Assembly (NCBI GenBank): GCA_964447285.1
Contig: CAYURO010000026.1
Coordinates: forward strand, 143 to 64,142
From: an uncultured Enterobacteriaceae bacterium
GTDB taxonomy: Bacteria > Myxococcota_A > UBA9042
DNA: 64,000 bases
Direction: 5' to 3'
Each line of letters starts with the position of its first letter. Within the stretch, counting starts at the first letter, position 1. A program made the position numbers. Below, piece by piece: positions 36,001-39,000 of the stretch.

Positions 36001-39000
36001 CGACTTGCCATGGTCGATGTGGGCGATGATGCTGAAGTTGCGAATGTTCTTGGCTTTCATGGTCCTGCTGGCGATGGTCGCTTGGCCCGGGTGGGGGTCA
36101 GCAGAGTGCGGTCGCTGGGCGGTGGTGTCAACCGCTTGGGAACTTGGCCGATGCGGCGTGCAGTGCAGCGTCCCCCGCCAAAACGGCGAAAGGCCCTGGA
36201 GCCGAAACTCCAGAGCCCTCGCCGTTTCTTCGCGTTGCGACGGCCGACGGGACCGCGCACCACGAACACTTGGCTACAGGTGCTCGATACCGGTCTTCTT
36301 GACGACCGCCTTCCACACCTTGGCCGGCAACCACTTCGGACGCGCGGTCGGAGCGGTCACCTGCAGACGCTTGCCCTCGAACACGTGAACGCGCTTGGTG
36401 CCGCGCTCGCGCAGACGGATGTCCGTGAACCCGCGGTTGGCGGCCTTCAGAGCGGCGCCGCGCGGCTGGGCGTTCGAGAACACGATCGTCGTATCCTGTC
36501 CGTTCTCCATCAGAACGAAGTTCTTCTTCGCCTTCTCAGCCATGGCCAGTTTCTCCCCTCAGCGGGCCACTTCATTGACCGGGCCCCCCGGCGGATGAAG
36601 CAGCTTTCGTAACACTGCGAGGTATGCGGTGGAACGCGCCGACACGCAAGACTTCTCGCGTACAAAGGAAGGTCGCCGGAGGGTGTGCCGGACCTGACGT
36701 CGTGGGGGTCAGACGCGAGCGTGCGCGGCATGCACGATATAACATGGTGAAATGAAGCGAGATTATGCGTCGCAGCCGCGCACGCTCCCGTTCACCCCAG
36801 GCAGGCCCCGCGGCCGTGATCGCGGATGATCGTCGACGGAATTCCCTTGATCGCATCGGCGTGTCGCGATCGAGTTCGCCCAGAAAGTTCCTGCCGCGCG
36901 GGTGCGTGTTACGGTGCGCGCTGGAGGACTTCGGATGCCCCGTGCCGTGCTCATCATCGCCTTGTCGCTGCTTTGGTCGGTGTGGTCCGCGCCGACGGTG
37001 GCCTTGCCGTGGAGTCGCCTGCACTCGGCGGTTCAGCGGTTGCGGGTCGCAGACCTTGACGGACTGGACAAGACGCTGATCGCGGTCGAAGAAGAGAGCA
37101 AATCCCCAGACATGGACGCGTTGGTGGCGTATCTGCGTGCTCGTTTGGCGGTACGGCGCGGCGACGGCGACAAGGCGCGAGCTCAGCTGGCCAAGGCCCA
37201 ACGGATGCGGCAGGTGGCGCCTGAGGCTTGGGATTGGGCAGAGATCGAGGTGCTGGTGGCCGACGGCAAGCCGGGCACCGCGCTGGTCAAGCTCGAGGCA
37301 TTCCGCAAAGCGTGGCCGCAGTTCCGGTGGGCGGCGGCGGACCTGCTGTACTCGCGGCTGTTGGAACGCGTGGGCCCTGCCGAGACGACTGCTGAGCTGT
37401 CGCTGCAGCTTTACGAGAAGACCCAGCTGCACTTGCCGCGCGATGAGCTGTTGGCGCGTGCGGCGCGGGTGCTGGCGGCCAAGGCGCCAGAACGATCGCG
37501 GGAGCTGTGGAAGCGCCTGCTGATGAAGCACCCGGAGAGCGACTTTGCCGGAGAAGCCGCCAAGTCTTGGAACCCAGAGCAATTTTCCGATGCCGAGCAG
37601 TTTGCGCGCATGGAGTTGCTGTTCGCCCGTCGCGCCTACGAGCGGTGCCGCGAGATCGCCCTGCGCCTGTGGCTTCGCGAGCATCGACCTGCGGAAGTGG
37701 GCTATTACCTTGGCAAGATCGGCTCCGAGCGGCTGCGCGACGACTATCCGGGCGCGACGCGAATGTTGGAGGTGGCCAGCGCCGATGGTGCGCCCCTGCA
37801 GAAGTCGGCGCTGATCTCGTACGGCGTCGTACTGATGAAGATGAAGCGGCCGAACGATGCGGTGGCCGCCTTTGACAAGTGGCTGGCGCTGTATCCCGAC
37901 GAGCCGTTGGCCAAGCGGGTCGAGACCCACTACGACCGCGGCCGCGTCCTGCATGGGGCGGGTCTGTCGCTGGACGCGGCGCGCGACCTCGAGACCTTCC
38001 TGAACACCTGCAAGAACGGCAACTTCGACTTCCCCAAGTACTGGTGGTTCGTGGGCTGGTGGCGCTACCGCGGGGGCGACATGGCGGGGGCGGTCGAGGC
38101 CTTCAAGCCCCTGCTCGCGTTCAAGAATCCGCTGGTGGGGGGCAAGGCGCGCTACTGGACCGGACGGGCGCTGGACAAGCTGGACAAGCGGGACGAGGCG
38201 GTGGAGGTGCTGGCGAGCCTGGTTCAAGACCAGCCGCTGACGTACTACAGCGCCCTGGCCGAGTGGCGGCTGCACGAGTGGGGGCAGGGCAAGCGCGTTC
38301 GGAAGCTGCCGGACCTGTCGCACGTGCCGCGCAAGGCCAGCGACGCGTTTGTGGGGCTCAAGCCTTCGCCTGAGCTCGACCGCCTGCGCCTGGCGGTCCA
38401 CATGGGCGAGGCCGACACGGCGAACGACGTGCTGGAAGAGGTGCGCAAGCCGCTGGAGAAGCATCTCGGCAAGGCGAGATTCGGGAGGCTGGTCGAGGAC
38501 TTGGCCGACCCGCTGGAGGACTACGCCAATCCGCGGCAAGAGGCGGTGCGCCAGTGGGGCTCTGTGCTGGACGAGCCACCGACCGCCAAGACCGTGGACA
38601 AGTGGCGGGCCATCTACCCTCGCGCCTATGAGACGCATGTGGTGGCTGCGTCAAAGGAATTCGGCGCGCCGGAGTGGATGGTCTACGCGCACATGCTGCA
38701 GGAGTCGCGGTACAAGCCGTGGCTGATCTCGCACGCCCCCGCCTACGGCCTGCTGGAGCTGTTGGACCGCACCGCGGCGCGTCTGGCGAAGGACGCGGGC
38801 GACGACTACCAGCTGTGGAAGCTGATGGTGCCGGCGTGGAACGTGCGCTGGGGCACGCAGTACCTTGGGGCGCTCTACAAGAAGTTCGACAAGCAACTGC
38901 CTTTCGCGATAGGTAGTTACAACGGTGGGCCGATGCTGTTCGAGCAGCACACCCGCAACAACGCCAAGCTGGAACTGGACGAACTGATCGACGATCTGGG

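Follow-up and report, generated by a model that had tools for sequence, protein, structure and literature searches.

An MC1-family chromatin protein gene in an uncultured aquatic Myxococcales-type bacterium

Introduction

The window analyzed here, a 64,000-nucleotide stretch of contig CAYURO010000026.1 (GenBank assembly GCA_964447285.1), carries a gene for an 89-residue protein of the MC1 (Methanogen Chromosomal protein 1) family between the bacterial genes lepA and slt. We consider it likely that this protein is a true MC1 gained by inter-domain transfer, that its gene, by now inherited vertically and under strong constraint, belongs to the chromosome of an uncultured Myxococcales-type lineage from aquatic habitats, and that its product is probably associated with the nucleoid. 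Nucleoid proteins are usually seen as domain specific, with HU, IHF, H-NS and Fis in bacteria and histones, Alba, MC1 and Cren7 in archaea. The use of histones as major chromatin proteins by some bacteria is a recent finding of wide interest.

Results

Identity of the protein

The gene and its two neighbors are as follows.

36274..36543, minus strand: MC1-family gene (open reading frame [ORF], Pfam PF05854, match to PDB 1T23, AlphaFold2 model, physicochemistry, contact-residue mapping, and GC content at third codon positions [GC3] of the coding frame)
34258..36060, minus strand: lepA (EF4; Pfam GTP_EFTU and LepA_C), co-directional with the MC1 gene and 213 bp downstream of it; a bacterial housekeeping anchor
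36902..39154, plus strand: slt, a lytic transglycosylase with SLT domain and TPR (Pfam SLT/TPR), divergent from the MC1 gene and its conserved synteny partner

Read from its ATG start, the ORF encodes MAEKAKKNFVLMENGQDTTIVFSNAQPRGAALKAANRGFTDIRLRERGTKRVHVFEGKRLQVTAPTARPKWLPAKVWKAVVKKTGIEHL, a strongly basic, single-domain protein of about 10.0 kDa (pI 11.08; 19 Lys and Arg versus 7 Asp and Glu). The pI of bacterial MC1 homologues ranges from 10.4 to 11.7, while haloarchaeal members are acidic (4.8 to 5.6).

The original prediction, made from the DNA alone, held that the protein aligns along its entire length with Methanosarcina MC1, and it proposed a profile search with PF05854. That search was significant: the protein matched PF05854 with E=1.1e-28 and 99.8 bits, far in excess of the gathering score of 23, and its residues 6-89 covered profile positions 2-95 of 96. 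It had no other Pfam match. A phmmer search against all PDB sequences likewise gave a sole match, chromosomal protein MC1 (1T23/2KHL/2NBJ; E=1.5e-18), with residues 7-89 of the window protein aligned to Methanosarcina residues 4-92. The motifs listed in the original prediction (NFVL, QPR-AALKAANRG, IRLRERGTK-VHVF, AP--RP-W-P-K and VKK--IE) are each present and aligned to the Methanosarcina protein. No NCBIfam family matched. We conclude that the window ORF is a bona fide MC1 family member.

Predicted fold and DNA-contact surface

The AlphaFold2 model of the protein, built with 62 homologues in the alignment, has a predicted local distance difference test score (pLDDT) of 91.8 and a predicted template modeling score (pTM) of 0.76. 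It places strands at residues 7-13 and 16-24, a helix at 27-36, strands at 41-46 and 51-63, an 11-residue loop at 64-74, and a last strand at 75-88. The elements determined by nuclear magnetic resonance (NMR) for Methanosarcina MC1 are b1 4-9, b2 15-21, helix 25-32, b3 43-48, b4 55-65, arm 67-77 and b5 79-90 (Loth et al. 2019). Once the difference in loop length is allowed for, model and NMR elements correspond one to one, with b1-b2, the helix, b3-b4, the long arm (LP5) and b5 at homologous positions in a confident model. The model agrees with the MC1 fold, and the window protein is predicted to have the MC1 topology. Foldseek searches of predicted viral structures (BFVD) gave giant-virus MC1-domain proteins as the best matches (probability 1.00, TM up to 0.79); these came from chlorovirus, pandoravirus, mimivirus and a Faunusvirus, whose protein is named 'Chromosomal protein MC1 domain-containing'.

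Could the protein instead be HU or IHF? This was ruled out. MC1 is its sole Pfam match, and the model consists of one helix and five strands, unlike the dimeric alpha-helical core with beta-arms of HU/IHF. Separately, tblastn with Escherichia coli HU and IHF found no match in the window or in the related loci, a search of very low power that covers 64 kb of a multi-Mb genome.

The one visible difference from Methanosarcina MC1 had been described as a short deletion after AANRG. The length difference is real, in that the helix-b3 loop is 6 residues shorter in the window protein, but it is better read as a Methanosarcina/haloarchaeal insertion in a variable loop. The longer inserts belong to Methanosarcina and haloarchaea. 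Methanothrix, MGII archaea (Marine Group II; Poseidoniales) and bacteria all carry the short loop, and AANRGFTDIRLRERGTK is identical in Methanothrix and the window protein; hence, the difference is not peculiar to the bacterium. Loop length is known to vary across the family at a position outside the DNA interface (Loth et al. 2019).

The contact residues of MC1 were defined in Methanosarcina by NMR, docking and mutagenesis (Paquet et al. 2014). They map from the Methanosarcina protein to the window protein as follows.

R25 to R28: kept; mutating R25 costs >100-fold affinity
Q23 to Q26: kept
K30 to K33: kept
K53, K54 to K50, R51: both still basic
H56 to H53: kept
R71, P72 to R68, P69: kept
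W74 to W71: kept
M75 to L72: conservative change
P76 to P73: kept
K81 to K78: kept
K85, K86 to K82, K83: kept
I89 to I86: kept
R88 to G85: a substitution termed common by Paquet et al. 2014
K22 to A25: lost

In an alignment of sequences from bacteria, MGII, Methanothrix, DPANN-type archaea, Methanosarcina and one haloarchaeon, W71, K83 and the AALKAA helix are invariant, and R28 is nearly so. Judged by these residues, the predicted DNA-contact surface is largely retained in the window protein.

Genomic context and selection

The MC1 gene is internal to the 64-kb window, with bacterial genes on both flanks. Pfam confirmed its location between LepA (34258-36060, minus strand) and the SLT/TPR transglycosylase (36902-39154, plus strand). 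Other window proteins identified in this way are RNase J, a GAF histidine kinase, thiolase, AcrB/OEP efflux proteins, TetR, PDH E1, PrmC, FabD/FabG/KAS and a TolB-like protein.

Related loci are numbered here with an L. Locus L001, from a metagenome-assembled genome titled 'uncultured Myxococcales bacterium', encodes an MC1 protein 100% identical to that of the window, and the two genes differ by 2 synonymous and 0 non-synonymous changes. The neighboring proteins are less alike (Slt, 93.9%; another neighbor, 82%; LepA, 99.2%), so L001 comes from another strain or species. At least 8 further Myxococcales-type assemblies share the divergent slt-MC1 pair (loci L001-L007, L081 and L082), with lepA downstream of MC1 in L001-L003 and L082. 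Across the slt-syntenic genomes, Slt identity falls as low as 54-60%, MC1 identity is 73-82%, and LepA identity is 78-82%. MC1 is as conserved as LepA across these genomes. The ratio of non-synonymous to synonymous substitution rates (dN/dS) for MC1 is 0.20-0.25, at dS 0.6-0.8 (window versus L002, L003, L006 and L007). The bacterial MC1 gene is under purifying selection and is strongly constrained. As far as these loci show, slt marks the bacterial MC1 lineage and does not indicate a functional link to MC1.

An index of the assembly collection lists the exact 89-residue protein in 74 blocks, and the contigs that were read share its neighbors. Hence, the host is a common organism and not a one-off assembly. 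One related contig, L007 (CAYHHL010000236.1; GC 65.5%), is labeled 'uncultured Enterobacteriaceae bacterium'. This label is almost certainly wrong, since its slt-MC1 synteny, high GC and promoter motif match the Myxococcales-type clade.

The window is 67% GC and shows no GC anomaly at MC1. By codon position, GC content (GC1/GC2/GC3) is 0.60/0.43/0.88 for MC1 and 0.64/0.37/0.89 for the adjacent lepA. MC1 ranks 3 of 23 window genes in codon fit to window preferences and has the lowest effective number of codons (Nc), in keeping with the host-like codon bias noticed at the outset. In every lineage, the GC and GC3 of MC1 follow the host; GC3 is as low as 0.30 in an MGII genome of low GC and as high as 0.97 in a bacterium of high GC. 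As to a transfer vehicle, no MC1 match was found in 50,697 phage genomes, in IMG/VR or on bacterial plasmids, and no mobile-element genes were seen among the Pfam-annotated neighbors. Synteny across diverged genomes, purifying selection, compositional amelioration and the bacterial context all support the earlier proposal of an old, domesticated transfer.

Expression signals

Three candidate signals accompany the gene.

36553..36558, minus strand: Shine-Dalgarno sequence GGGGAG, read from the sequence, 9 nt upstream of the ATG
36621..36649, minus strand: promoter-like element, TTGCGT (36644-36649), 17 nt, CATACC (36621-36626); it begins 106 nt before the ATG, and a T-run precedes it
36181..36227, minus strand: terminator-like hairpin between MC1 and lepA, with a GC-rich stem of ~20 bp, a UUCG loop, and AAA and UUUU flanks

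A purine-rich GGAG/GGGG box stands at the same distance before MC1 in all of the 13 related bacterial loci. The 358-bp divergent slt-MC1 intergenic region is unalignable between genomes but for one island, made up of a T-run, an invariant CTTGC, 17 nt and CATA. The pattern TTGCnn-N16-18-CATAnn lies upstream of MC1 in 10 of 10 slt-syntenic loci, where chance would give it in about 0.2-1.2% per locus; L004, L005 and L081 were not used to derive the pattern, yet they carry it. We infer that this element may be a sigma-70-type promoter with non-consensus hexamers. A scan with the strict sigma-70 consensus did not call it.

The hairpin folds as RNA with a centroid energy of -36.4 kcal/mol (z=-4.16), and 1 of 200 shuffles was equally stable. 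A terminator consensus scan missed it because the U-tract has just 4 U. The Shine-Dalgarno sequence and the hairpin had both been picked out in the original prediction, which called the gene monocistronic. Drawn from these two signals and the promoter-like motif, a monocistronic gene is plausible.

Between the putative promoter and the Shine-Dalgarno sequence, in the 5' untranslated region (UTR) of MC1, lies a GC-rich palindrome, CCGCCGGGGGGCCCGG (36566-36600, minus strand). Part of it is preserved in L002 and L007, and it may form a stem-loop in the 5' UTR. An Rfam scan of the window found nothing.

Distribution and origin of bacterial MC1

The MC1 family is small: at 50% identity, 1.84 billion representatives yield 252 clusters of it, and all of the bacterial and MGII sequences fall into one or two of these. 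Among the best 120 clusters at 90% identity, 100 are nearest to bacterial references and 20 to MGII, and the groups grade into each other. The range given in the original prediction, Methanomicrobia and Halobacteria, was too narrow, for MGII archaea and giant viruses also carry MC1.

Four further long contigs with other MC1 neighborhoods are clearly bacterial. Their surroundings include a flagellar basal-body operon with FlgH and FlgI, DNA polymerase III alpha with RsmB, and a set including sigma-54 activators, SLT and a type IV pilin. Since these bacterial neighborhoods differ, MC1 occurs in several bacterial lineages or positions. We claim its spread among bacteria no further than 'deltaproteobacterial'-type lineages. 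In L075 (1-8279), MC1 sits beside the flagellar basal-body operon (flgF, G, A, H, I, flgN and flgK). The best named matches of the L075 FlgI are Syntrophobacteraceae, Desulfobacteraceae and Polyangia, and as these reach only 47-52% identity, we leave the host phylum unassigned. For MC1 cluster P0082 and FlgI cluster P0149 alike, the longest contig measures 30,379 bp, a hint that a second genome has the arrangement of L075. For L008 and L009, Pfam gave no domain-diagnostic genes among the neighbors, and those two loci are placed by their record labels. A 3-Mb contig with an MGII-like MC1 has archaeal neighbors (Cdc48 and AsnC).

Some bacterial MC1 proteins (P0102, at L081:5622-5951, and P0114) carry a Lys/Ala/Pro-rich N-terminal tail of 20-25 residues (MAGTKKTPAKKTTKPAPAVEAKKEKK...), which resembles the tails of histone H1 or of actinobacterial HU. 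P0102 belongs to the same bacterial clade, since it has the same divergent SLT-TPR neighbor.

Where did the bacterial gene come from? Bacterial MC1 is at most 65-70% identical to any archaeal MC1; the closest archaeal relatives are MGII, followed by Methanothrix. The likeness to Methanosarcina MC1 therefore stands as full-length homology, but Methanosarcina is not the nearest relative. In neighbor-joining (NJ) trees with 200 bootstraps on ~90 alignment columns, a group of bacteria, MGII and uncultured/DPANN archaea separates from one of Methanothrix and Methanosarcina at 99-100% support. With haloarchaea as the root, the NJ tree gives Methanosarcina, then Methanothrix, then the mixed clade of bacteria, MGII and uncultured archaea (68%). 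The split between bacteria and MGII receives bootstrap support of <=50%, and MGII nests among the bacterial sequences in the rooted tree. Because ~90 columns cannot resolve bacteria from MGII, the direction of transfer is undecidable from these trees. Hocher et al. 2022 (PMC7613761) concluded that MGII obtained its MC1 by horizontal transfer from a source within the Methanosarcinales, and the bacterial clade is now to be added to that picture.

The plasmid-borne copies of MC1 are on haloarchaeal megaplasmids only. Halococcus dombrowskii has acidic MC1 paralogues (pI about 5) on five different plasmids (hits H1-H5), and at the two loci fetched, L077 and L079, each MC1 follows a TRAM-domain gene. 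MC1 is multicopy and plasmid-borne in this one haloarchaeon.

Other genes in the window

Other ORFs and clusters noted in the window are as follows.

245-8134, plus strand: giant protein of 2629 residues, rich in NHL/teneurin-NHL repeats, that also has Dictyostelium CTDC repeats and, at its C terminus, a TLDc domain; a eukaryote-like domain mix in a bacterium
11257-15711, minus strand: 1484-residue ORF with a complete AcrB-type RND transporter (residues 4-1008) and an OEP/TolC-like domain (1301-1481); either an apparent pump-channel fusion or the result of a missed stop or frameshift
25960-27171, minus strand: GNAT acetyltransferase fused to thiamine-phosphate synthase (ThiE)
39158-40021, minus strand: GIDE-family (E3-ubiquitin-ligase-like) protein directly beyond slt, a position kept in L082
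41071-47958, plus strand: fatty-acid or aryl-polyene-like cluster, with a FabD-like acyltransferase, two SDRs, KAS III, FabA/ApeI/ApeP-like dehydratases, KAS and an acyltransferase
50961-56355, minus strand: three tandem paralogues of 575-634 residues, each with a proprotein-convertase P-domain and otherwise unannotated

Discussion

Proposed function

By analogy with the Methanosarcina protein, the window MC1 is most likely a monomeric, minor-groove DNA-bending, nucleoid-associated protein. As a monomer of ~10 kDa, it would bind double-stranded DNA along the concave side of the bend. The b5 residues K82, K83 and I86 would enter one minor-groove site, and the flexible arm P69-x-W71-L72-P73 would enter a second one ~10 bp away. 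R28, at the start of the helix, would neutralize the phosphates drawn together across the compressed major groove. The expected outcome is a sharp bend or V-turn of ~100-120 degrees, and the preferred substrate would be pre-bent, supercoiled or junction DNA. In the cell, the protein would serve as an architectural component of the nucleoid alongside the bacterial set (HU/IHF). In Methanosarcina, MC1 is an abundant protein, and in MGIIa its gene is highly transcribed. For the bacterial protein, the strong codon bias, the strong Shine-Dalgarno sequence, and its own promoter-like motif and terminator hint indirectly at high abundance.

Several points weigh against this reading. DNA binding, bending and abundance of bacterial MC1 are all extrapolated from archaeal relatives. 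Two positions in the contact surface have changed: K22, a proposed minor-groove contact, is replaced by Ala (A25), and the window protein has Leu where M75L reduced affinity in Methanosarcina (Paquet et al. 2014). The evidence from codon bias is based on just 89 codons. Foldseek against the PDB gave no match at E<0.5 and did not list the MC1 entries, in a library of 174,310 of ~252,000 entries; this may be because the MC1 entries, which are NMR only, are outside that library. Finally, MC1 is dispensable in Methanosarcina acetivorans under standard conditions, so belonging to the family does not by itself imply a 'major chromatin protein'.

In the main rival reading, the window protein is a real MC1-fold bender with a specialized role and not an abundant global nucleoid protein. 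It might act as an IHF-like architectural cofactor (at enhancer-dependent, sigma-54 promoters, in recombination or in repair) or protect DNA under stress or stasis. Points from the literature speak for it: MC1 prefers bent DNA and four-way junctions, and roles in transcription and in radioprotection have been proposed for it, DNA-binding proteins of M. acetivorans, MC1 included, are dispensable and important mainly after stress or stasis, and such proteins never displace HU in bacteria (Burroughs et al. 2017). Sigma-54 activators do lie near MC1 in two other bacterial contexts, though these are common genes in these genomes. However, no functional partner gene is conserved and the neighborhoods differ between lineages, while conservation at the level of LepA, strong codon bias, and a promoter-like motif and terminator hairpin of its own suit an abundant housekeeping protein no less well. 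We regard the specialized role as unlikely.

Perhaps the gene does not belong to a bacterium at all, but came from an archaeon such as MGII or Methanothrix and was misassembled, joined in a chimera or misbinned? All MC1 carriers are metagenome assembled, L007 is evidently mislabeled, and the closest non-bacterial relatives are aquatic archaea of the same habitat. Against such an artefact, the gene is embedded in 64 kb of bacterial genes, the slt-MC1(-lepA) order recurs in independent assemblies from different lakes, groundwater and studies, and the exact protein occurs in 74 collection blocks, with the same neighbors on the contigs read. Its GC, GC3 and codon usage equal those of its neighbors, and no archaeal MC1 is closer than 65-70%. 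This explanation is effectively refuted. The gene could also be a recent or selfish acquisition, carried by a phage, plasmid or island as cargo, or else a xenologue in decay that has no host function. The family does move, as its homologues on haloarchaeal megaplasmids and in giant viruses attest, and the bacterial copies lie in several unrelated neighborhoods. Yet the phage, IMG/VR and bacterial plasmid searches were empty, no mobile-element genes were seen nearby, there is no compositional island, and synteny persists across deep divergence with a dN/dS of about 0.2. We give this idea almost no credence. Misassembly, mobile cargo and a pseudogene are all rejected on the bacterial flanks, the recurrent synteny, the host-like composition, the dN/dS and the negative vehicle searches.

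Relation to known systems

Among the characterized relatives, MC1 of Methanosarcina thermophila CHTI55 (UniProt P12770; PDB 1T23, 2KHL and 2NBJ) is alike in family and length class, with ~53% identity over the whole protein. The two share the predicted b-b-a-b-b-arm-b topology and the R25/W74/P72/K85-K86/I89 contacts, and their pI values are 10.3 (M. thermophila) and 11.1 (window). The window protein differs in its bacterial host, in the helix-b3 loop shorter by 6 residues, and in the substitutions K22 to A, M75 to L, R88 to G and W61 to K; it is known here from sequence. Closest of all is MGII MC1 (65-70% identity), with which it shares the QPRG, WLP and VWKA signatures, the short loop and the aquatic habitat. 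MGII, bacterial and uncultured/DPANN archaeal MC1 group together at 99% support, with Methanothrix and Methanosarcina outside the group, although MGII belongs to another domain of life and its MC1 has other gene neighborhoods. Methanothrix (Methanosaeta) MC1 (~60% identity) has the identical AANRGFTDIRLRERGTK core and the short loop and is sister to the clade of bacteria, MGII and uncultured archaea (68% bootstrap); it differs in its QPRQ, WMP and IWKP signatures and its archaeal host.

Giant viruses provide another case of MC1 outside archaea. Their MC1-like proteins (mimivirus gp275/R252 and those of chlorovirus, pandoravirus and marseillevirus) have the same fold by Foldseek (probability 1.00, TM 0.6-0.8), and mimivirus gp275 binds and bends DNA and is oligomeric. 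Unlike the window protein, they are only 17-32% identical to it, often lie within longer proteins with disordered tails, and serve viral packaging instead of a cellular role. The histones of bacteria (HBb of Bdellovibrio bacteriovorus, and that of Leptospira) are analogous, being chromatin proteins of archaeal/eukaryotic type in a bacterial nucleoid. They differ in having an unrelated fold and binding mode and in that their abundance and essentiality or importance were established by experiment, whereas MC1 here is known from its gene.

How new is a bacterial MC1? Full-text literature searches found no characterization of any bacterial MC1. A 2017 fold census had MC1 shared only by Archaea and eukaryotic viruses. 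However, MC1 is listed in one line among proteins that may accompany HU in bacteria (Burroughs et al. 2017), and some of these proteins already bear the NCBI name 'chromosomal protein MC1 [Myxococcales bacterium]'. The novelty supposed in the original prediction is thus reduced and not removed. It is moderate: the family and its mechanism are known, and the bacterial presence had been noted in one sentence and by automatic annotation.

Significance

The potential of the finding rests on the parallel with bacterial histones and on the relationship between bacteria and MGII. The locus shows that bacteria have stably adopted a second chromatin protein of archaeal type, whose fold is unique and whose mode of bending, monomeric and from the concave side, is unusual. 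The lineage is environmentally common, as the occurrence of the exact protein in many metagenome assemblies indicates. This amounts to a natural experiment in how the nucleoid of a bacterium accommodates a foreign architectural protein, and it offers a tractable target for biochemistry, with 89 residues and known predicted contacts. The history of MC1 in Marine Group II archaea may also need revision. A further-reaching proposal, which we hold to be rather unlikely, is that MC1 ranks among the principal chromatin proteins in a large Myxococcota-type radiation that is uncultured and mostly aquatic, and that bacterial and MGII MC1 stem from one inter-domain transfer, possibly from bacterium to archaeon, as the weakly supported nesting of MGII among bacterial sequences in the rooted tree would suggest. 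If this were true, the 'archaeal' chromatin protein of MGII would have come via bacteria, and the nucleoid of some bacteria would be organized by a monomeric DNA bender of archaeal type, which certain lineages have extended with a histone-H1-like Lys/Ala/Pro tail.

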